39,760 bases of DNA from a virus (Duplodnaviria > Heunggongvirae > Uroviricota > Caudoviricetes): the IMG/VR virus record IMGVR_UViG_2711768002_000014; one strand, given 5' to 3'. The notes under the pieces were generated by a model that was not told where the DNA came from, did not search any database, and saw only the letters and a list, made by a program, of their open reading frames with translations. A program made the position numbers and the translations under genes. This document shows positions 3,812 to 38,900 of this stretch, one piece after another. Within the stretch, counting starts at the first letter, position 1. Each line of letters opens with the position of its first letter.

Positions 3812-3975
3812 CGACCCTGCAAGGTCGGTTGGTTTCTCCACAAAACAGAGAAGAACACCTGCGGTGGCAGCCGCCCGGATGGATTTGGTTATGAGCCCGT
3901 CGTCCGGTGATGCTCTTCTCTGTTTTGTAAAAAGAGCGGTACCAGCCGGAAGCAAGTGTACAAACTGGTACCGCC
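3812..3975 (-). promoter_or_regulatory. structured 5' leader of the leftward transcript (multiple stem-loops)
   Basis: 14-bp perfect inverted repeat caaaacagagaaga (3841-3854) / tcttctctgttttg (3914-3927); 10-bp inverted repeat gcggtaccag (3945-3954) / ctggtaccgc (3966-3975); cgacc..ggtcg at 3812-3828. Confidence 0.3.
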
Positions 3976-4415
3976 AAAGCAGTGGCTGTTGTGGTGACCG
4001 GTGCTGATCTCCGGCTTGCGGTTATTTCAGACTCTCACGGGCGTTTAATTGCCCCGCCGAACAGCTCTTTTCCGCATTAGCTGCAATGTCTTTCGCGCAT
4101 CAGCCTGCGCATTCACCACAACGCTGAGAGCACTTAGCCAGTTACGGCACCACACTTTGTCGCGGTTCCATAAATGTCCTCATCGTTGCACCCTGGTCTC
4201 TTCCCAGGCGTCAAACCGAATCGCCACGCTGGTTAGGCGTCTTATCAGCATCATCATTGACTTGCACATTCCGGCTACCTGGTTTGTTTGCCCGAGCAAG
4301 GAGTGGATTGTCCCCTTTAACGTCCCCAGACCGCTAACGACGCATGTGCCATACGCCGTGTTACAACCAAATTTTGTTTAATCTTGCCTGTGCTGTGTTT
4401 CTTTTAGATACATTA

Positions 4416-4432
4416 TGTATCCCAAAGGTACA
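4416..4432. promoter_or_regulatory. putative left operator (OL-like) half-site pair TGTATC-N5-GGTACA
   Basis: Same motif as the palindrome between repressor and cro; lies just beyond the repressor 3' end, where a pL operator is expected. Confidence 0.4.
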
Positions 4433-4443
4433 TTGTCAAGTAT

Positions 4444-4465
4444 AAAAAAACCTGCCGAAGCAGGT
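4444..4465 (-). terminator. rho-independent terminator downstream of the repressor gene
   Basis: cctgc-cgaag-cagg hairpin flanked by an A7 run (a T-run on the minus-strand transcript). Confidence 0.5.
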
Positions 4466-4477
4466 TATAAATATTGA

Positions 4478-5152
4478 TTAGGCCTTTATTATGTATCTTC
4501 TTGGTTTTCCTGAGAAAATCACTGTACCAATTATAGAGCAATTACCGTTAATCTTAATGTAAGGCTCAGGCCAGTTTGGGTTTAATGCTTTGAGATAACG
4601 CTGTGTTCCATCTTCTATCAACCGCTTGAAGGTGGTTTCGCCTGTATCGTGCATCAATGCAATAACGTCGTCACCGTGGCAGGCAGGGACTTCAGGATCA
4701 ACAAAAATCATGTCTCCCGGGCGGTACTCATCAATCATTGAATCACCAATCACCCGCAAGATATAAGTCATTTCGCCACAGGGTACAGGGCAGGGATAAG
4801 TTTCTGCTGTGCTCAAATCAACCTCAGAATAGCCAACTTCTTTCCATGCTCCGGCCTGTACCCATGATATGACAGGGACTAACGTTATTTGTTTGTTAGT
4901 GATTGAAACGTCAGGTTTTTTTGTGATGTTCGTTGTCTGGTGTTCTTGATCAAGCCATCCGACAGGCAGGTCGAAACATTTTTCGATGTGCCGTGCCATG
5001 CTGTCACCGATATTTTTAGTTGCACCATCTCCCATAAACCTGCTGGTCTGGGTTGGCTCGCGATCAATCATGGTGGCAAAGGAAGAATTCCCGCCAACAC
5101 CATCTCTCAGTTTTCTGGCGTTAGACCGCCGGATGTCATGGACTGTTTTCAT
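4478..5152 (-). CDS. CI-like prophage repressor (N-terminal HTH, C-terminal S24 LexA-like peptidase)
   Basis: 224 aa; C-terminal domain with the GDSM serine motif and a downstream Lys (FKRL); divergent from the cro-like gene across an operator-containing spacer. Confidence 0.85.
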   Translation of the reverse strand: MKTVHDIRRSNARKLRDGVGGNSSFATMIDREPTQTSRFMGDGATKNIGDSMARHIEKCFDLPVGWLDQEHQTTNITKKPDVSITNKQITLVPVISWVQAGAWKEVGYSEVDLSTAETYPCPVPCGEMTYILRVIGDSMIDEYRPGDMIFVDPEVPACHGDDVIALMHDTGETTFKRLIEDGTQRYLKALNPNWPEPYIKINGNCSIIGTVIFSGKPRRYIIKA

Positions 5153-5169
5153 AAAGAAATTAAAACCTT

Positions 5170-5186
5170 TGTACCGATAAGGTACA
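5170..5186. promoter_or_regulatory. operator: perfect palindrome TGTACC-gataa-GGTACA
   Basis: 17-bp dyad in the 90-bp repressor/cro intergenic region. Confidence 0.5.
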
Positions 5187-5219
5187 AGTATCTTGAAGGT
5201 TCATCTCAATCATGTAATA

Positions 5220-5236
5220 TGTATACCGGAGGTACA
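5220..5236. promoter_or_regulatory. second, weaker operator-like site TGTATA-ccgga-GGTACA
   Basis: Matches the half-site motif with two mismatches; overlaps the cro RBS (GGAGG). Confidence 0.3.
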
Positions 5237-5474: not shown

Positions 5475-6038
5475 ATGAGGCTAACCGTGGGTAAGCATCA
5501 CTGGAAAGTAGAAAAACAGCCTGAGTGGTACGTGAAAGCTGTCAGAAAAACTATCGCGGCGTTGCCGGGGGGTTACGCTGAAGCTGCTGAGTGGCTGGAT
5601 GTAACAGAGAACGCTTTATTCAACCGCCTTCGTGCAGATGGCGATCAGATTTTCCCGCTGGGATGGGCAATGATTTTACAGCGCGCGGCTGGCACTCACT
5701 ACATTGCGGATGCTGTCGCACAGTCTGCTGGTGGGGTGTTTGTATCGCTTCCTGAAATTGAGGAAGTAGAGAACGCCGATATAAACCAGCGCCTGCTGGA
5801 AGTCATCGAACAGATCGGGAGTTACTCAAAGCAGATTCGTTCGGCAATCGAAGATGGGGTAGTGGAGCCACACGAGCAGACAGCAATTAATGATGAGTTG
5901 TATCTGTCAATTTCGAAGCTCCAGGAGCATGCAGCACTGGTCTACAAAATCTTTTGCGCTCCAGAAAAGAGTGACGCCCGCGAGTGTGCAGCTCCGGGCG
6001 TCGTGGCGTTTTGTGTCTGTGGAGAAACTAACGCATGA
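5475..6038 (+). CDS. CII-like / YdaT-family regulatory protein
   Basis: 187-aa ORF immediately after cro; resembles the remembered phage CII (CP76/YdaT) family; start uncertain (weak RBS). Confidence 0.4.
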   Translation: MRLTVGKHHWKVEKQPEWYVKAVRKTIAALPGGYAEAAEWLDVTENALFNRLRADGDQIFPLGWAMILQRAAGTHYIADAVAQSAGGVFVSLPEIEEVENADINQRLLEVIEQIGSYSKQIRSAIEDGVVEPHEQTAINDELYLSISKLQEHAALVYKIFCAPEKSDARECAAPGVVAFCVCGETNA

Positions 6039-6871
6039 ACAGTTTAACGGCAAATAACCGTTTGTCGCAACAGCTGGTGGTCAGCGTCGCTGAACACCTG
6101 TTGTTACGGCATGAATGCAGATTACCAAATCACCTGGCTGTAAGTAACCACAGAGAACTTTACCTGACTGTGGGGGGCGAGTTGTGCAGGAACTTAACCG
6201 CTGGTTTCGTGACGGAAGAGGACTTTATGTTCATGTTATTCGTTGGGAGCCAGAAACACAGCGCGTTATCTATCTTCGCAAAGACTACCCGCATGAGTGC
6301 TTTAGTCCTTTGTGGAAATTCAGGCGTGATTTTGTTGAGTGTGAAGGACCACCAGCACATTGATTCTGCCATTCCGGGACGTTACACTGTTCAGGCACCT
6401 TATAAAGCGGGTGCCGGGATTGGCGTCCTGGAATTGATCAAGGCGATATATGACGCGCCAGCGTCTTTTTTATCGTCCGCATTTGCTCACATCAAAGTTA
6501 TGGTGGGCTGGGCGGGGGCATCGAAAGATGCGCCGGTTTCCTTGATCACCGGTTACGCCAACCCCGTTCAGTTCACCACCAGCGAAATTGGCGTTTCCGG
6601 TGGTGGAAGTATTTCACCGATCAAGGAGGCTGCCATCATGGCTACTGTCCCAGCCCTCACTCGTCTGAATGATGAAGACTTACATAAACTCAGTTATGTA
6701 ACAACTGCACTACGTGCTCTGCGCAAGGTAACTCTTTCGGATCCGCAGGCACATCAGGTTCTGGTAGAAACCCTTCTTAACTTGCAAGCTGAACGTATTC
6801 GTCTGGCGGATAAGGCTAATTTTCATATTCACCGTCTCCTGAATATCAGCGGAGGGCATCGTCATGCTTAA
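6035..6871 (+). CDS. hypothetical protein; gene model uncertain
   Basis: 278-aa ORF with ATGA overlap to the upstream gene; contains an internal AAGGAGG-ATG (6623-6640) and an alternative frame that reads as protein between 6148 and 6363. Confidence 0.3.
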   Translation: MNSLTANNRLSQQLVVSVAEHLLLRHECRLPNHLAVSNHRELYLTVGGELCRNLTAGFVTEEDFMFMLFVGSQKHSALSIFAKTTRMSALVLCGNSGVILLSVKDHQHIDSAIPGRYTVQAPYKAGAGIGVLELIKAIYDAPASFLSSAFAHIKVMVGWAGASKDAPVSLITGYANPVQFTTSEIGVSGGGSISPIKEAAIMATVPALTRLNDEDLHKLSYVTTALRALRKVTLSDPQAHQVLVETLLNLQAERIRLADKANFHIHRLLNISGGHRHA

Positions 6872-7100: not shown

Positions 7101-7915
7101 GTATGGAGCTGATGGTTAAAGCGATGAAAATTCGAGTGGGTAATCCATTGCGAAAACTGGTTCTGATCAAGCTGGCTGATAATGCCAGCGATCAGGGTGA
7201 GTGCTGGCCCAGCTACCAGCATATTGCTGACCAGTGCGAAATTAGCAAACGTTCTGTGATGAATCATATTGCGGCCCTTTGTGAGTCCGGGCTGGTAAAA
7301 AAAGTCACCCGGAAAGGTGAAAAAGGTAACTCAAGTAATATCTATCTCCTTCATCTGGATGGTGCAGGAGATTCACTAGGGGGTAGTGCAAATAATTCAC
7401 TATCTGGTGCAGCAAATTCACCAGGTAGTGCAGGAGTTGCACCAGGGGGTAGTGCAGGAGATTCACCCAGAACCAGTCACTCTTTTGAACCAGTCAAAGA
7501 ACCAGTCAATGAACCAATAGCTGTTGGTGCATCAGTTGATGAGTCCGTGCGAGTTCGTTCAAACCGACCGGAATACTCTCCGGAGTTTGAGCAGGCATGG
7601 CTGGCATATCCCAAACGTGCTGGTGGCAATTCAAAATCTGCAGCCTTCAAAGCCTGGAAAGCCCGTTTGAATGAGGGAGTAAACCCCGAAACCATGCTGG
7701 AAGGTGTGAAACGCTACGCGGGATGGGTATCTGCGATGGGTAACAGCGGCACACAATTTGTGAAACAGGCTGTCACGTTCTTTGGTCCGGATCGTCATTT
7801 CGAAGAATTCTGGGAAGTTCCTGCGGTATCTGCAGCCAGACGCGAGGACCCGTACTTCAAAGCCAGTTACGACAACGTGGACTACAGCCAGATCCCGGCA
7901 GGATTCAGGGGGTGA
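7097..7915 (+). CDS. replication initiator-like protein (N-terminal HTH of phage O / HTH_36 type) with Gly/Ser-rich linker
   Basis: N-terminus LRKLVLIKLADNASDQGECWPSYQHIADQCEISKRSVMNHIAALCESGLV is typical of phage replication-initiator wHTH domains; internal DNA direct repeats. Confidence 0.55.
   Translation: MSMELMVKAMKIRVGNPLRKLVLIKLADNASDQGECWPSYQHIADQCEISKRSVMNHIAALCESGLVKKVTRKGEKGNSSNIYLLHLDGAGDSLGGSANNSLSGAANSPGSAGVAPGGSAGDSPRTSHSFEPVKEPVNEPIAVGASVDESVRVRSNRPEYSPEFEQAWLAYPKRAGGNSKSAAFKAWKARLNEGVNPETMLEGVKRYAGWVSAMGNSGTQFVKQAVTFFGPDRHFEEFWEVPAVSAARREDPYFKASYDNVDYSQIPAGFRG
7361..7520. repeat. iteron-like direct repeats inside the initiator gene (candidate ori)
   Basis: Five degenerate ~20-bp units (GGTAGTGCAGGAGATTCACC-like) followed by four GAACCAGTCA units. 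Confidence 0.4.
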
Positions 7916-8406
7916 TCATGAGTCTTTTGAATGAAGTTCAGAAATTCATTGAAGCCCATCCGGGGTGTACTTCCGGAGACATTGCGGATGCTTTTGCAGG
8001 TTACTCACGGCAGCGCGTTCTGCAGTCAGCAAGCAAGTTACGTCAGAGTGGGCGTGTGGCTCACCGTTATGAAGGAGATACACGCAGACATTTCCCACGC
8101 CTGACTGAGAGAGCGCAGGAGCCGGAACCACAACCAGTTCGTGAAACCAGACCTGTGCGCAATTTCTATGTCGGCACTAACGATCCCCGGGTGATTTTGT
8201 GCCTGACCCGCCAGGCGGAAGAACTGGAGTCCAGGGGCTTATACCGTCGTGCTGCAACGGTGTGGATGGCGGCATTCCGTGAAAGCCACTCCCAGCCAGA
8301 ACGAAACAATTTTCTGGCGCGTCGTGAGCGGTGCTTACGGAAAAGCAGCAAGCGCGCTGCATCGGGTGAAGAGTGGTATCTGTCAGGGAATTACGTGGGG
8401 GCTTAA
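7912..8406 (+). CDS. PerC-like transcriptional activator family protein
   Basis: C-terminal LTRQAEELESRGLYRRAATVWMAAF matches the remembered PerC signature (LE..GLWRRAA..W). Confidence 0.5.
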   Translation: MIMSLLNEVQKFIEAHPGCTSGDIADAFAGYSRQRVLQSASKLRQSGRVAHRYEGDTRRHFPRLTERAQEPEPQPVRETRPVRNFYVGTNDPRVILCLTRQAEELESRGLYRRAATVWMAAFRESHSQPERNNFLARRERCLRKSSKRAASGEEWYLSGNYVGA

Positions 8407-9059
8407 TGAGTAATAAATATTGCCAGGCGCTGGTGGAGCTGCGGAACAAACCAGCCCATGAACTGAAGGAAGTGGGCGATCAGTGGCGCACGCCGGATAA
8501 CATTTTCTGGGGAATTAACACCCTGTTTGGCCCGTTTGTTCTGGATCTGTTCACTGATGGTGATAACGCCAAATGTGCCGCTTATTACACTGCGGAAGAC
8601 AACGCGCTGGCGCATGACTGGTCTGAACGTCTTGCGGAGCTTAAAGGTGCTGCCTTTGGTAATCCCCCGTACAGCCGCGCCAGTCAGCATGAAGGGCAAT
8701 ACATCACCGGCATGCGTTACATCATGAAACATGCCAGTGCCATGCGTGATAAGGGCGGACGCTATGTTTTCCTGATCAAAGCTGCCACCAGCGAAGTGTG
8801 GTGGCCGGAAGATGCAGATCATATTGCTTTTATTCGCGGGCGTATTGGTTTTGAACTGCCTGCCTGGTTTATCCCGAAGGACGAGAAGCAGGTGCCGACA
8901 GGCGCTTTCTTCGCTGGTGCTATTGCTGTTTTCGACAAGACCTGGAAGGGACCGGCAATCAGCTACATCGGGCGCGATGAACTTGAGGCATGTGGTGAGG
9001 CGTTTCTGGCGCAGGTTCGCCAGCAGGCGGAAAAACTGGTCAGGGAGATGGCGGCATGA
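8406..9059 (+). CDS. phage Dam-type N6-adenine DNA methyltransferase
   Basis: NPPY catalytic motif (FGNPPYSR); TAATG overlap with the upstream gene. Confidence 0.8.
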   Translation: MSNKYCQALVELRNKPAHELKEVGDQWRTPDNIFWGINTLFGPFVLDLFTDGDNAKCAAYYTAEDNALAHDWSERLAELKGAAFGNPPYSRASQHEGQYITGMRYIMKHASAMRDKGGRYVFLIKAATSEVWWPEDADHIAFIRGRIGFELPAWFIPKDEKQVPTGAFFAGAIAVFDKTWKGPAISYIGRDELEACGEAFLAQVRQQAEKLVREMAA

Positions 9060-9382
9060 CGACGTTAACTCAATGCCAGCAGCAGGTGCTGGATATGCTG
9101 ATTTCTTACCAGAAAGAACGTGGCTTCCCGCCAACCAATCAGGAGGTGGCAACCATGCTGGGATACCGTTCAGTGAATGCAGCGGTGGAACATCTTCGCG
9201 CACTGGAGAAAAAAGGCGTCATCACGATAAAGCGTGGCATGGCCCGGGGTATCACTCTTCATACCGCGGTGAAGGACGACGACAGCGAGGCGGTCGGGAT
9301 TATCCGCTCACTGCTTGCCGGTGAGGAAAACGCCAGGCTGCGTGCAACCCACTGGTTACATGAGAGAGGCCTGAAAGTATGA
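9056..9382 (+). CDS. LexA DNA-binding-domain-only protein
   Basis: N-terminus QQQVLDMLISYQKERGFPPTNQEVATMLGYRSVNAAVEHLRALEKKGVITI parallels the LexA N-terminal wHTH; only 108 aa, no S24 peptidase domain. Confidence 0.65.
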   Translation: MTTLTQCQQQVLDMLISYQKERGFPPTNQEVATMLGYRSVNAAVEHLRALEKKGVITIKRGMARGITLHTAVKDDDSEAVGIIRSLLAGEENARLRATHWLHERGLKV

Positions 9383-9768
9383 AGCTGATCCTGCCTTTCC
9401 CGCCCAGCGTGAACACGTACTGGCGACACCCCAACAAAGGGGCATTTGCTGGTAAGAGCCTGATAAGCGCGGCGGGGCGAAAATTTCAGAGCGCGGCGTG
9501 CGCAGCAATAGTTGAGCAGTTACGTCGTCTGCCAAAACCAACGTCGGCACCTGCTTCAGTGGAGATCGTGTTGTTTCCTCCGGATAACCGGATCCGCGAT
9601 CTGGACAACTATAACAAGGCGCTGTTTGACGCCCTGACCCACGCGGGGGTGTGGGAAGACGACAGCCAGGTGAAAAGAATGCTGGTGGAGTGGGGACCGG
9701 TTATCCAGAAAGGGAAGGTCGAGATCACTATCAGTAAGTATGAGAAACCGGCGGGTGCAGCCGCCTGA
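9379..9768 (+). CDS. rusA: RusA Holliday-junction resolvase
   Basis: 129 aa; conserved RusA motifs (LPFPPSVNTYWRH..., DLDNYNKALFDALTHAGVWEDDSQV). Confidence 0.85.
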   Translation: MKLILPFPPSVNTYWRHPNKGAFAGKSLISAAGRKFQSAACAAIVEQLRRLPKPTSAPASVEIVLFPPDNRIRDLDNYNKALFDALTHAGVWEDDSQVKRMLVEWGPVIQKGKVEITISKYEKPAGAAA

Positions 9769-13642: not shown

Positions 13643-14695
13643 ATGAAAAATACTGTAAAAATAAACAGTGTTGATTTAATCAACGCTGATTGCCTGCATT
13701 TTATTCAGTCCCTGCCTGATGATTCCATTGACCTGATTGTTACCGATCCGCCTTACTTCAAGGTGAAACCCAACGGTTGGGACAATCAGTGGAAAGGGGA
13801 CGAAGATTACCTTAAGTGGCTGGACCACTGTCTGGCCCAGTTCTGGCGGGTGTTGAAACCTGCCGGAAGCCTTTACCTGTTCTGTGGGCATCGCCTGGCA
13901 TCTGATATTGAGATCATGATGCGTGAACGTTTCAACGTGCTTAACCATATCATCTGGGCGAAGCCGTCCGGACGTTGGAATGGGTGTAATAAAGAAAGTC
14001 TGCGCGCATATTTTCCTGCCACAGAGCGCGTTCTGTTTGCTGAACATTACCAGGGGCCATATCGCGGCAAAAGTGACGGCTATGCGGCAAAAGAAAGGGA
14101 ACTCAAACAGCACATAATGGCACCGCTGATATCGTATTTCAGGGATGCTCGTGCCGAACTGGGTATAACGGCAAAACAAATTGCCGAAGCCACAGGTAAG
14201 AAAAATATGGTTTCCCACTGGTTTGGTGCCAGTCAGTGGCAGTTGCCGAATGAGGCTGACTATCGGAAGTTACAGGCACTGTTTTCCCGTATAGCGGCAG
14301 AGAAGTTTCAGGAACAACAACTGGAACAACCACACCACCAGCTGGTGGCATCTTATGATTCACTGAATCGTAAATATTCTGAATTGCTGGATGAGTTTAA
14401 ATCTCTCCGGCGCTATTTCTCCGTATCAGTCTCCGTGCCTTATACCGATGTCTGGATGCATAAACCCGTTCAGTTCTACCCGGGGAAACATCCGTGTGAG
14501 AAACCGGCGGATATGCTCAGGCAAATAATCAATGCCAGTAGTCGACCAGGTGATCTGGTTGCTGATTTTTTTATGGGATCCGGTTCCACAATAAAAGCAG
14601 CAATGGCGCTGGGGCGTCGGGCCTTAGGTGTTGAGCTTGAGTCAGAGCGGTTTAATCAGACAGTGAAAGAGATAAACGAGCTGGTGGGGAAATAA
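13643..14695 (+). CDS. orphan DNA methyltransferase (N6_N4_Mtase family)
   Basis: DPPY motif (IVTDPPYF) N-terminal and FxGSGS motif ([12 protein letters not shown]) C-terminal; no adjacent endonuclease ORF. Confidence 0.85.
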
Positions 14696-14912: not shown

Positions 14913-15135
14913 NNNNNNNNNNNNNNNNNNNNNNNNNNNNNNNNNNNNNNNNNNNNNNNNNNNNNNNNNNNNNNNNNNNNNNNNNNNNNNNNNNNNNNNN
15001 NNNNNNNNNNNNNNNNNNNNNNNNNNNNNNNNNNNNNNNNNNNNNNNNNNNNNNNNNNNNNNNNNNNNNNNNNNNNNNNNNNNNNNNNNNNNNNNNNNNN
15101 NNNNNNNNNNNNNNNNNNNNNNNNNNNNNNNNNNN
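14913..15135. other. assembly gap (223 N)
   Basis: Run of n. Confidence 1.
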
Positions 15136-29881: not shown

Positions 29882-30866
29882 ATGCAGGATATTCCACAGG
29901 AAACACATCATGAGACGACACGCCTCACTCAGTCAGCCCAGGTGGTGCTCTGGGAAATCGATCTGACAGAGGTCGGTGGAGAACGTTATTTTTTCTGTAA
30001 TGAGCAGAACGAAAAAGGTGAGCCGGTCACCTGGCAGGGGCGACAGTATCAGGCGTATCCCATTCAGGGGACGGGATTTGAACTGAACGGCAAGGGCAGT
30101 GCTGCCCGTCCGACACTGACGGTTNNNNNNNNNNNNNNNNNNNNNNNNNNNNNNNNNNNNNNNNNNNNNNNNNNNNNNNNNNNNNNNNNNNNNNNNNNNN
30201 NNNNNNNNNNNNNNNNNNNNNNNNNNNNNNNNNNNNNNNNNNNNNNNNNNNNNNNNNNNNNNNNNNNNNNNNNNNNNNNNNNNNNNNNNNNNNNNNNNNN
30301 NNNNNNNNNNNNNNNNNNNNNNNNNNNNNNNNNNNNNNNNNNNNNNNNNNNNNNNNNNNNNNNNNNNNNNNNNNNNNNNNNNNNNNNNNNNNNNNNNNNN
30401 NNNNNNNNNNNNNNNNNNNNNNNNNNNNNNNNNNNNNNNNNNNNNNNNNNNNNNNNNNNNNNNNNNNNNNNNNNNNNNNNNNNNNNNNNNNNNNNNNNNN
30501 NNNNNNNNNNNNNNNNNNNNNNNNNNNNNNNNNNNNNNNNNNNNNNNNNNNNNNNNNNNNNNNNNNNNNNNNNNNNNNNNNNNNNNNNNNNNNNNNNNNN
30601 NNNNNNNNNNNNNNNNNNNNNNNNNNNNNNNNNNNNNNNNNNNNNNNNNNNNNNNNNNNNNNNNNNNNNNNNNNNNNNNNNNNNNNNNNNNNNNNNNTCG
30701 CGGCGATGAGTGCGGTTATCACGGTCCGGCGGTCGCGGATGAATATGATCAGCCGACGTCCGATATCACGAAGGATAAATGCAGCAAATGCCTGAGCGGC
30801 TGTAAGTTTCGCAATAACGTCGGCAACTTTGGCGGCTTCCTTTCCATTAACAAACTTTCGCAGTAA
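29882..30866 (+). CDS. L: minor tail protein L (interrupted by an assembly gap)
   Basis: N-terminal 81 aa and C-terminal ~55 aa (RGDECGYHGPAVADEYDQPTSDITKDKCSKCLSGCKFRNNVGNFGGFLSINKLSQ) match remembered lambda L; middle replaced by N. Confidence 0.85.
30125..30697. other. assembly gap (573 N)
   Basis: Run of n; flanks do not preserve the L reading frame. Confidence 1.
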
Positions 30867-35975: not shown

Positions 35976-38900
35976 ATGGCAGTAAAGATTTCAGGTGTAC
36001 TGAAAGACGGCACAGGAAAACCGGTACAGAACTGCACAATCCAGCTGAAAGCAAAACGTAACAGCACCACGGTGGTGGTGAACACGCTGGCCTCAGAAAA
36101 TCCGGATGAAGCCGGGCGTTACAGCATGGACGTTGAGTACGGTCAGTACAGCGTTATTCTGTTGGTGGAAGGATTCCCGCCGTCACATGCCGGGACCATC
36201 ACCGTGTATGAAGATTCCCGACCCGGTACGCTGAATGATTTTCTCGGTGCCATGACGGAGGATGATGCCCGTCCTGAGGCACTGCGCCGCTTTGAACTGA
36301 TGGTGGAAGAGGTGGCGCGTAACGCGTCCGCGGTGGCACAGAACACGGCAGCCGCGAAGAAATCAGCCAGCGATGCCAGCACATCAGCCCGTGAGGCGGC
36401 AACCCGTGCGACTGATGCTGCAGGCTCAGCACGAGCAGCCAGCACGTCAGCCGGACAGGCCGCTTCGTCGGCTCAGTCTGCGTCTTCCAGCGCAGGAACG
36501 GCATCAGCAAAGGCCACTGAAGCATCAAAAAGTGCTGCCGCTGCAGAGTCCTCAAAAAGCGCGGCGGCCACCAGTGCCGGTGCGGCGAAAACGTCAGAAA
36601 CGAATGCGGCAGCGTCACAACAATCAGCTGCCACTTCTGCATCCACCGCGACCACGAAAGCGTCAGAAGCAGCCACCTCAGCCAGAGATGCGTCGGCTTC
36701 AAAAGAGGCGGCAAAATTATCAGAAACGAGCGCAGCTTCGAGCGCCAGTAATGCCGCTTCCTCGGCAACGGCGGCAGGAAATTCCGCGAAGGCGGCAAAG
36801 ACGTCTGAGACAAACGCTAAGTCCTCTGAAACGGCAGCAGCACAGAGTGCCTCCGCAGCAGCAGGCTCAAAAACAGCGGCTGCGTCGTCTGCCAGTGCAG
36901 CGTCAACAAGTGCCGGGCAGGCCTCAGCCAGTGCTAGCGCCGCCGGAAAATCGGCAGAAAGCGCCGCATCGTCCGCTTCAACAGCCACAACGAAGGCTGG
37001 CGAAGCCACTGAACAGGCCAGTGCAGCAGCGAGGTCTGCTTCCGCAGCGAAGACATCGGAGACGAACGCGAAAGCGTCGGAGACCAGCGCAGAATCCTCA
37101 AAAACGGCTGCCGCATCGTCCGCCAGTTCGGCGGCGTCATCGGCATCATCGGCGTCTGCTTCAAAAGATGAGGCGACCAGACAAGCGTCCGCAGCGAAGG
37201 GCAGCGCCACGACAGCATCCACGAAGGCGACAGAGGCTGCTGGCAGTGCGACGGCGGCAGCACAGAGCAAAAGTACGGCGGAATCCGCGGCAACGCGCGC
37301 CGAGACAGCAGCAAAACGGGCAGAGGATATTGCATCCGCCGTGGCGCTTGAGGATGCGAGCACGACGAAAAAGGGGATAGTACAGCTCAGTAGTGCGACT
37401 AATAGCACGTCTGAAACGCTGGCGGCAACGCCAAAGGCAGTAAAAGCAGCCAATGACAATGCTGAGAAACGTCTGCAGAAAGACCAGAACGGCGNNNNNN
37501 NNNNNNNNNNNNNNNNNNNNNNNNNNNNNNNNNNNNNNNNNNNNNNNNNNNNNNNNNNNNNNNNNNNNNNNNNNNNNNNNNNNNNNNNNNNNNNNNNNNN
37601 NNNNNNNNNNNNNNNNNNNNNNNNNNNNNNNNNNNNNNNNNNNNNNNNNNNNNNNNNNNNNNNNNNNNNNNNNNNNNNNNNNNNNNNNNNNNNNNNNNNN
37701 NNNNNNNNNNNNNNNNNNNNNNNNNNNNNNNNNNNNNNNNNNNNNNNNNNNNNNNNNNNNNNNNNNNNNNNNNNNNNNNNNNNNNNNNNNNNNNNNNNNN
37801 NNNNNNNNNNNNNNNNNNNNNNNNNNNNNNNNNNNNNNNNNNNNNNNNNNNNNNNNNNNNNNNNNNNNNNNNNNNNNNNNNNNNNNNNNNNNNNNNNNNN
37901 NNNNNNNNGAACAACATTAACGCGGTCAGTAAAACAGACTTTGCTGATAAGCGTGGTATGCGTTATGTGCGGGTTAACGCTCCTGCAGGTGCAACATCTG
38001 GAAAATATTACCCTGTTGTTGTTATGCGTTCTGCTGGCTCAGTAAGCGAACTGGCATCAAGGGTCATTATCACCACGGCAACGCGAATCGCAGGCGATCC
38101 GATGAATAACTGCGAGTTTAACGGATTTGTTATGCCTGGTGGCTGGACTGACAGGGGGCGTTATGCTTATGGAATGTTCTGGCAATATCAAAACAATGAA
38201 CGAGCCATCCACTCAATAATGATGAGTAATAAGGGCGATGATTTGCGCTCTGTGTTCTATGTTGATGGCGCTGCTTTCCCTGTTTTTGCGTTTCTCGAAG
38301 ATGGCCTGTCAATATCCGCACCTGGTGCTGATCTCGTTGTTAATGATACGACCTATAAGTTTGGGGCAACAAATCCGGCGACTGAATGTATCGCGGCGGA
38401 CGTTATCCTTGATTTTAAGAGTGGGCGTGGTTTTTATGAGTCTCATTCGTTAATCGTTAACGATAACTTGTCGTGCAAAAAACTTTTTGCCACAGACGAA
38501 ATTGTAGCGCGTGGTGGTAATCAGATTCGAATGATAGGTGGGGAGTATGGTGCATTATGGCGTAATGATGGCGCTAAAACTTACCTGCTGCTTACCAATC
38601 AAGGTGATGTTTATGGTGGCTGGAATACATTAAGACCGTTTGTTATTGATAACGCAACCGGCGAACTGGTTATTGGAACCAAACTGTCTGCAAGTCTGAA
38701 CGGTAACGCATTGACAGCAACAAAGCTGCAAACGCCAAGACTGGTTTCTGGTGTTGAGTTTGATGGTTCCAAAGATATTACTTTAACCGCCGCGCATGTG
38801 GCTGCTTTTGCCAGAAGGGCAACGGATACATATGCCGATGCGGATGGTGGCGTTCCATGGAATGCCGAATCAGGCGCTTACAATGTCACCCGCTCTGGCA

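Follow-up and report, generated by a model that had tools for sequence, protein, structure and literature searches.

Certain mutants of LexA, the lexA(Ind-) or 'non-inducible' class (for example G85D and S119A; PDB 1jhf, 1jhh), bind SOS boxes, cannot be inactivated by activated RecA (RecA*), and leave the promoters that carry such boxes uninducible. Among truncated LexA homologues encoded by phages, the only studied example is gp6 of the Bacillus thuringiensis tectivirus GIL01, which activates the late promoter P3 (Fornelos et al. 2018, PMC6182141). It does so through a palindrome that is distinct from, and lies next to, the LexA boxes of the host, in a manner that depends upon K38; the promoters of GIL01 also carry such host LexA boxes (PMC6182141). 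The protein described here, termed 'sLexA' (short LexA), belongs to this same kind of truncated phage LexA homologues. Its gene lies at 9056..9382 in a stretch of 39,760 nucleotides (IMG/VR virus record IMGVR_UViG_2711768002_000014; Caudoviricetes), the whole of which is called 'the window' below and which is a lambdoid, e14/SfV-like prophage. As an annotated object sLexA is known and ordinary; what is new is an association of its gene with SOS boxes, and with it a testable hypothesis. The reading that we favor, at a probability of roughly one half, is that sLexA is a RecA-insensitive surrogate of LexA that represses at SOS boxes, a reading in which we infer the specificity, the dimerisation, the repression and the benefit to the phage alike.

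The open reading frame (ORF), present both in the ORF list and upon direct inspection of the sequence, runs from ATG to TGA and specifies a protein of 108 amino acids, MTTLTQCQQQVLDMLISYQKERGFPPTNQEVATMLGYRSVNAAVEHLRALEKKGVITIKRGMARGITLHTAVKDDDSEAVGIIRSLLAGEENARLRATHWLHERGLKV. The gene and the parts of its product are as follows (pLDDT, predicted local distance difference test score; pN/pS, ratio of nonsynonymous to synonymous polymorphism):

9056..9382, + strand: short LexA ('sLexA') gene, 108 amino acids plus stop codon; full-length match to PHROG 362; pN/pS 0.11
9056..9259, + strand: LexA-type winged helix-turn-helix, residues 1-68; matched by PF01726, PDB 1lea and, with Foldseek, 3jso
9260..9280, + strand: acidic, low-confidence linker HTAVKDD, residues 69-75; pLDDT below 50 at residues 71-75; length varies within the family through indels
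9281..9379, + strand: amphipathic two-helix hairpin, residues 76-108; predicted helices 75-87 and 93-102; pLDDT about 90

The N-terminal part of the protein matches the Pfam family LexA_DNA_bind (PF01726) over the entire length of the model (protein 1-65 against model 1-65 of 65; 69.5 bits against a cutoff of 23.7; E 2.1e-19), and a phmmer search of the PDB returns the DNA-binding domain of E. coli LexA (1lea, E 9e-16). An AlphaFold2 model of sLexA (mean pLDDT 80) has predicted helices at residues 6-22, 28-35 and 40-52, followed by a two-stranded wing at 56-59 and 65-68, and its top Foldseek match is LexA in the LexA-DNA complex 3jso, with a root-mean-square deviation of 1.5 Å over 67 residues. 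An earlier note on this DNA, made from the letters alone, had claimed a 108-residue protein with a LexA-type winged helix-turn-helix at its N-terminus and had asked for an alignment to the corresponding domain of LexA; that alignment, with 51% identity to E. coli LexA over the same 67 residues, and the matches just listed bear the claim out. The same note had stated that the S24 peptidase/dimerisation domain is lacking, and in this too it was right: a Pfam search of sLexA gave no match to S24 peptidase (PF00717), the protein stops at residue 108, and the lexA equivalog model of NCBIfam (TIGR00498) reaches 71 bits, under its cutoff of 111 bits, and aligns at model positions 1-91 of 203 only. 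The C-terminal domain that is missing from sLexA is the one that bears the Ser119/Lys156 dyad, and a protein with neither domain nor dyad cannot cleave itself or respond to RecA*. Residues A88-G89 of sLexA align to the scissile A84-G85 of LexA, and this Ala-Gly pair is not kept across the sLexA family (which has AG, AN, VG, ER, TR, DD and others at that point). Since it has neither an S24 domain nor a scissile bond that is conserved, sLexA is not a LexA.

The tail had been called short and unrelated, a description that is too simple: residues from about 69 to 90 align weakly with the hinge and cleavage-site region of LexA (LLAGEE against VAAGEP), and a two-helix structure is conserved. Columns 82, 83, 86, 87, 97, 100 and 101 of the tail hold a hydrophobic residue in 12 of 12 family members, at identities down to 40%, with A97 and L101 invariant. 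The hydrophobic positions are spaced i, i+1, i+4, i+5 in one helix and i, i+4, i+7, i+8 in the other, which indicates an amphipathic helical hairpin. Searches with the tail by itself returned no meaningful Pfam or PDB sequence match (NIL domain, E 0.02; LIM protein, E 2.1). This hairpin is a putative dimerisation element and the likely substitute for the lost S24 domain.

The DNA contacts of E. coli LexA, as given in PMC3091678, are S39, N41, A42, E44 and E45. Four of the five are retained in sLexA, whose recognition helix has S39, N41, A42, V44 and E45 at these positions. Across the 12 family members S39 is invariant, N41 is nearly so, and A42 and E45 are mostly retained; none of the 12 has an acidic residue at position 44 (V, A, T, F, L or Y is found there). 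Every invariant or near-invariant column of the N-terminal domain, among members that are 40-100% identical, carries the residue found in E. coli LexA, including R64-G65-I66 of the wing, and identity to LexA amounts to 5-8 of 10 residues in the segment of the recognition helix versus 43-55% elsewhere. The rigid spacing of LexA operators is attributed, in PMC8565304 (citing Zhang 2010), to the wing of the winged helix-turn-helix and not to the C-terminal domain, so that a protein consisting of the DNA-binding domain only could read the same 16-bp box. Non-inducible binding of sLexA to SOS boxes, or to operators of its own, as the earlier note had envisaged, is plausible, with indirect support from these residues and from the SOS boxes and SOS-box promoters described below.

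When the window was scanned with a symmetrised 20-bp position weight matrix (PWM) for SOS boxes, built from 21 E. coli boxes that themselves score 13-27 bits, with at least 17 bits taken to define a strong box, a single strong match was found:

13651..13670, no strand assigned: host-type SOS box, the window's only strong one, TACTGTAAAAATAAACAGTG; PWM 22.4 bits

The next best match in the window reaches 10.1 bits; in shuffled windows the best score has a median of 10.6 bits and a 95th percentile of 15. The box begins 8 nucleotides into an ORF for a Type II-like DNA methyltransferase (13643..14695), between Q and the holin/lysis genes, and is a candidate target both of host LexA and of sLexA. 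A bare search for CTGT-N8-ACAG proved too unspecific (21 matches versus 13.7 expected). A perfect core of that form, CTGTAAGTAACCACAG at 6138-6153, was set aside: the matrix gives it less than 8 bits, it is coding sequence in related phages, and it is probably there by chance.

Around sLexA in 80 IMG/VR loci (6 kb to either side), 55 strong boxes were counted in 43 loci, at few recurrent positions: the 5' end of the methyltransferase gene, the part of a cI-like repressor gene that encodes the linker, and the intergenic region between rusA and kilA-N (L043-type). A fourth recurrent position, which appeared in loci anchored on window-type rusA and extended by 10 kb to either side, lies 12 nucleotides upstream of a reverse-oriented moron of two genes. 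This moron (its box is at L531:14026-14045 and also at L538:5497) encodes a membrane protein of 173 amino acids and a protein of 294 amino acids, is situated between the Q region and the holin, and has the appearance of an accessory or defence module under LexA control. Two sets of control loci, lambdoid nin regions without sLexA, held almost no boxes: 80 loci anchored on DLP12-type rusA contained 0 boxes in 797 kb, and 80 anchored on lambda ninG contained 1 box in 1255 kb. When distinct boxes were counted over dereplicated sequence, with the close clade made up of the sLexA-anchored and the window-type-rusA-anchored loci, the result was as follows:

Close clade with sLexA: 8 distinct boxes in 508 kb of unique sequence
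Distant relatives with sLexA (seven loci): 6 distinct boxes in 73 kb of unique sequence
Controls without sLexA (DLP12-rusA and lambda-ninG): 1 distinct box in 591 kb of unique sequence

Regions with sLexA thus hold 14 distinct boxes in 581 kb, versus 1 in the 591 kb of the controls (binomial p = 4e-4); a conservative count gives 8 independent positions versus 1 (p = 0.02). The association also appears in the reverse direction, since, among the 68 loci anchored on the methyltransferase gene that bears the box (found in 68 of the 68), 64 have sLexA upstream, and sLexA is present in 49 of 55 loci anchored on the box-bearing cI. Distances from gene to box vary between loci, which points to mosaic intervening DNA, and the isolated phage mEp460 carries both boxes, that of the methyltransferase and that of cI. 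In a scan of CTGT-Nx-ACAG with x from 0 to 16, the N8 spacing came out on top among the cases (20 distinct contexts versus 8), with N13-N15 also raised against a high background. An exploratory palindrome scan of cases versus controls, dominated by allelic immunity operators and terminators, found ACTGT-N8-ACAGT enriched (12 versus 0) and yielded no clear alternative, non-SOS operator.

Inside the linker-coding region of cI-like S24 repressor genes the boxes are near-perfect, with scores of 25-27 bits (L004:1546-1565; L570:4836-4855; about 31970 in mEp460, JQ182728), and a LexA site so placed might act as a roadblock or within an antisense promoter. In L570, whose sLexA is 48% identical, the 27-bit box occupies the same codon position in cI as it does in L004, the two cI proteins being 71% identical. 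The codons of the half-sites (T-V and N-S) are kept between these two loci while those of the spacer differ, a pattern that suggests selection on the DNA motif.

In all seven of the distant relatives for which a context is available, sLexA belongs to a lambdoid early operon and is followed, either at once or after one small ORF, by rusA-DUF968-Q. This order, sLexA-rusA(-DUF968-Q), is kept down to 40% identity (contexts of P0130, P0139, P0125, P0126, P0163 and P0244); the locus of P0175 (L573) is without rusA, and sLexA is followed there by an ORF of 67 amino acids, DUF968 and Q. Dam or another methylase often precedes sLexA in the distant relatives, and Dam is missing from several of the contexts. 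Within the sub-clade of P0139, P0175 and P0244 the gene stands behind canonical SOS-box promoters. The promoter in L573 consists of TTGAAC, 17 nucleotides, and a TACTGT -10 element inside a 27-bit box (513-532), and is followed by dinI, orf75 and sLexA; in L574 two tandem boxes (4907-4942) precede a RecA_C-like ORF, orf77 and sLexA; and in L086 a 20.6-bit box (5560-5579) comes right after a TAATAA -10 element and is followed by orf82 and sLexA. As far as sequence can tell, the layout in this sub-clade is that of lexA: SOS-box-controlled, potentially autoregulated, and inside an SOS-modulating cluster with DinI. The same three loci share a conserved ORF of 75-82 amino acids 5' of sLexA and a conserved ORF of 66-67 amino acids 3' of it. 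Locus L086 also carries, at 3863-5232 in its nin region, a reverse-oriented RNase_A_bac toxin gene and a CdiI_2-like immunity gene, divergent from the SOS-box promoter of the sLexA operon.

The immediate surroundings of sLexA in the window comprise the following features:

9044..9047, + strand: Shine-Dalgarno sequence GGAG, 8 nucleotides 5' of the sLexA ATG and within the 3' end of dam (direct reading)
8406..9059, + strand: dam, phage Dam N6-adenine methyltransferase, the upstream neighbour in the same operon (Pfam PF05869, E 1e-45; PGAP annotation in L001)
9379..9768, + strand: rusA, RusA Holliday-junction resolvase, the downstream neighbour (Pfam PF05866)

The stop codon of dam overlaps the ATG of sLexA (ATGA, 9056-9059), and the stop codon of sLexA overlaps the ATG of rusA (ATGA, 9379-9382); such an overlap on either side points to translational coupling of sLexA within its operon. 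An identical copy in E. coli A14 (L001) is found in the order S24-type repressor (ymfK-like), cro-like gene, ymfL, replication protein, PerC-like regulator, Dam, sLexA, RusA, KilA-N protein, DUF968/HNH, Q antiterminator, small ORFs, DNA methyltransferase, holin, endolysin and terminase. In the window, in L001, in mEp460 and in the distant relatives the gene has the position of the PHROG 362 family, ahead of rusA-(DUF968)-Q in the lambdoid nin region. A PADLOC search of sLexA gave just a weak match to a CARF-like helix-turn-helix (E 3e-4), so that the protein does not form part of a known defence system. Directly 5' of dam the window encodes a PerC-family regulator (yfdN-like, 7912-8406), and at the left end of the prophage a protein with a Panacea domain (1-573); runs of N (masked or unknown bases) occupy 14913-15135, 30125-30697, 35234 and 37495-37908 in its lysis and tail regions. 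In E. coli A14 the prophage is inserted at dusA (L001, 1-2700), beside zur-yjbJ-dinF and a few kb from the lexA-dinF operon of the host, a closeness that is probably fortuitous, dusA being an integration hot-spot.

Across 134 alleles of sLexA the pN/pS comes to 0.11 for the whole gene, to 0.03 for the winged helix-turn-helix and to 0.24 for the tail. Both the DNA-binding domain and the tail are under purifying selection, and values this low mark a functional gene and not debris. The phrog_362 model, labelled 'transcriptional repressor', covers residues 1-108 with model positions 1-106 of 106 (E 4.3e-59). A HMMER scan of 1.8 billion cluster representatives gave 4662 proteins at E<=1e-3, mostly LexA or other LexA-domain proteins, together with eight short proteins, 40-52% identical, that match sLexA through the tail. 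Of 5426 complete E. coli genomes, 2233 (about 41%; 2855 places) carry copies that are 90-100% identical, and 50-61 phage records contain sLexA, among them those of SfV (orf42), SfII, SfIV, cdtI, mEp460 (mEp460_046), Ayreon, and the Shiga-toxin phages of types Stx2a, Stx2c and Stx2k. The copies in named phages and in E. coli genomes are 97-100% identical in the PHROG 362 comparison, and a tblastn search of 50,697 phage records at E<=1e-5 found sLexA in enterobacterial phages only. Clusters of intact proteins of 106-108 amino acids have hundreds to thousands of members and stand alongside many truncated or frameshifted singleton variants. Proteins consisting of LexA_DNA_bind only are common among predicted viral structures (BFVD), and some proteins of 140-350 amino acids (P0132, P0134, P0146, P0148, P0153) have two tandem LexA_DNA_bind stretches.

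In public records the protein goes by 'LexA family transcriptional regulator', 'LexA DNA binding domain protein' or 'LexA family protein'; 'SOS-response repressor and protease LexA', 'RecA-mediated autopeptidase' and 'LexA repressor' (the last also in identical E. coli copies) are used as well and are wrong, and its neighbour Dam often bears the mistaken name 'phosphoadenosine phosphosulfate reductase'. A survey of Shiga-toxin phages lists the family as a pfam01726 pham (Pham 237) in 15 phages and adds nothing further (PMC8136144). A first scan of viral contigs gave near-identical copies only and was used for the census of boxes, not for diversity. A scan of genome contigs with the family alignment was uninformative on the short family, nearly all of the matches listed being full-length host lexA (Halomonas and others), and one candidate member, L132, turned out to be a genuine LexA.

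The favored reading may be set out as a sequence of steps. As a delayed-early gene of the rightward operon (replication genes, dam, sLexA, rusA, Q), sLexA would be made after induction or infection; its amphipathic hairpin would most likely let it dimerise, and it would then bind SOS boxes of the form CTGT-N8-ACAG. Since it has no cleavage module, activated RecA could not remove it, and it would re-impose or maintain repression at SOS boxes once the LexA of the host had been destroyed. Its first targets would be the phage's own high-affinity boxes, in cI, upstream of KilA-N or moron genes, and where the methyltransferase gene near the lysis cassette starts, and it would probably act also at SOS promoters of the host and on LexA-controlled competitors. 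From this a wider circuit may be drawn, which we put forward tentatively and hold to be somewhat doubtful: an SOS-timing circuit in which the phage has very high-affinity boxes of its own at key points (inside cI, upstream of KilA-N/antirepressor-like and moron genes, where the lysis region is entered, and before dinI-sLexA operons) and in which uncleavable sLexA would take over these boxes and the SOS regulon of the host after the loss of LexA, shutting off SOS functions and competitors (colicins, antirepressor-type prophages, SOS toxins) and making the decisions of the phage independent of the SOS state of its host.

Several points weigh against a LexA surrogate. Thirty-seven of the 80 close-clade loci, together with the loci of P0130 and P0125, have no strong box within 6-10 kb, and shared ancestry and physical linkage inflate the association in sets of loci that are redundant. 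A promoter scan found no consensus-like promoter over the box in the window, and simple promoter occlusion fails to explain a site that lies inside a coding region and is not overlapped by such a promoter. The replacement of E44 by a non-acidic residue in the 12 family members means that specificity or affinity may differ from those of LexA. A literature search found no functional study of the sLexA family, just listings. Kim and Little are said to have found, in 1992, that the isolated N-terminal domain of LexA binds operators weakly, so that a surrogate of LexA depends upon the putative dimerising tail. Finally, gp6 is an activator with altered specificity, and repression of SOS boxes by sLexA therefore cannot be assumed.

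The explanation that survives best beside this one, unlikely as we consider it, follows from that last point: sLexA might be a phage-specific regulator like gp6, its domain having drifted (from E44 to V, A or F) to a non-SOS operator, from which it would activate or time a phage promoter, for example that of late or moron genes. There is the precedent of GIL01, in which an activator works through a distinct palindrome in a phage that has LexA boxes, and the absence of an acidic residue at position 44 throughout the family and the wide occurrence in phages of LexA_DNA_bind-only proteins would both accord with it. However, sLexA retains S39, N41, A42 and E45 whereas gp6 relies on K38, and in the exploratory scan no conserved non-SOS palindrome stood out, ACTGT-N8-ACAGT being among those enriched. 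In addition, the tblastn search ties sLexA to enterobacterial phages and not to tectiviruses, and the late genes are already served by the Q antiterminator.

A third explanation, which we regard as improbable, keeps the SOS box as the target and reverses the outcome: as a weak or monomeric binder, sLexA could displace LexA or block its rebinding and so prolong or trigger the SOS response, aiding induction or supplying repair functions. The protein does combine the conserved DNA-contact residues of LexA with the lack of its dimerisation domain, and it is co-transcribed with genes of recombination and repair (rusA, dam). Nevertheless, any protein bound at these operators would itself occlude promoters that have their -10 element within the box, such as those of L573 and L574; a stable oligomer is suggested by the conserved hydrophobic hairpin; and DinI, which is encoded in the same operon in L573, dampens the SOS response rather than prolonging it.

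Slightly less credible still is a role outside transcription, in which the winged helix-turn-helix and tail would recruit Dam, RusA or the DUF968/HNH nuclease to DNA sites, or regulate them there. The persistence of the order sLexA-rusA-DUF968-Q down to 40% identity and the translational coupling to both neighbours in the window would fit such an accessory, but genes of unrelated function also keep their order in lambdoid nin regions, Dam is missing in several contexts and rusA in L573, and the association with SOS boxes and SOS-box promoters would be left unexplained. That sLexA is a decaying remnant of a captured lexA, with no present function, is effectively refuted: the resemblance to the N-terminal part of lexA, the vestige of a hinge and cleavage region and the many broken singleton variants are outweighed by the low pN/pS (above all in the DNA-binding domain), by the large clusters of intact proteins, by a tail (to 40% identity) and a synteny that are conserved, and by the presence of the gene in functional isolated phages (SfV, mEp460, cdtI and the Stx2 phages).

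If sLexA is indeed an uncleavable binder of SOS boxes, prophages that have been induced could use a gene carried by about two fifths of complete E. coli genomes to rewrite the response of their host to DNA damage, in carriers that include Stx2 phages and the serotype-converting phages of Shigella. This would bear upon mutagenesis, upon the SOS response induced by antibiotics, upon the timing of Shiga-toxin phage induction, and upon the rivalry of co-resident prophages and colicin plasmids. It would also provide a natural, compact, RecA-proof LexA module, and a second, mechanistically different re-use by phages of LexA's DNA-binding domain beside gp6 of GIL01. If sLexA is instead a phage-specific regulator, its interest would be more local, and the unusual SOS boxes inside cI genes would still need explaining.

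Set beside the described systems, sLexA shares with E. coli LexA (1lea, 1jhh, 3jso; TIGR00498) the residues at positions 39, 41, 42 and 45 and R64-G65-I66 of the wing, and a weak residual similarity that extends through the hinge to the 'AAGE' cleavage-site region. It differs from LexA in having no S24 domain and no conserved Ala-Gly, in the replacement of E44, in the addition of a two-helix C-terminal hairpin, and in being encoded by a phage within an early lytic operon. The phenotype expected of it is that of the Ind- mutants, a binder of SOS boxes that is proof against RecA*; in contrast to those mutants, which are full-length, S24-dimerised proteins with a point mutation, sLexA is without the whole domain, and any dimerisation requires another element. 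From the 'LexA family transcriptional regulator' of enterobacterial prophages (PHROG 362; PGAP) it shows no structural difference, being a member of that same family. Like gp6 of GIL01, it is a truncated phage LexA encoded among early genes, in a phage that has LexA boxes. A sequence link between sLexA and tectiviruses was not found by tblastn at E<=1e-5, and the LexA-domain matches among Tectiviridae in BFVD are at the level of the fold only. Unlike gp6, sLexA retains the contact residues of LexA, adds a conserved helical tail of about 35 amino acids, and resides in lambdoid siphophage and myophage mosaics of Enterobacteria, and its mode of action is probably a different one.

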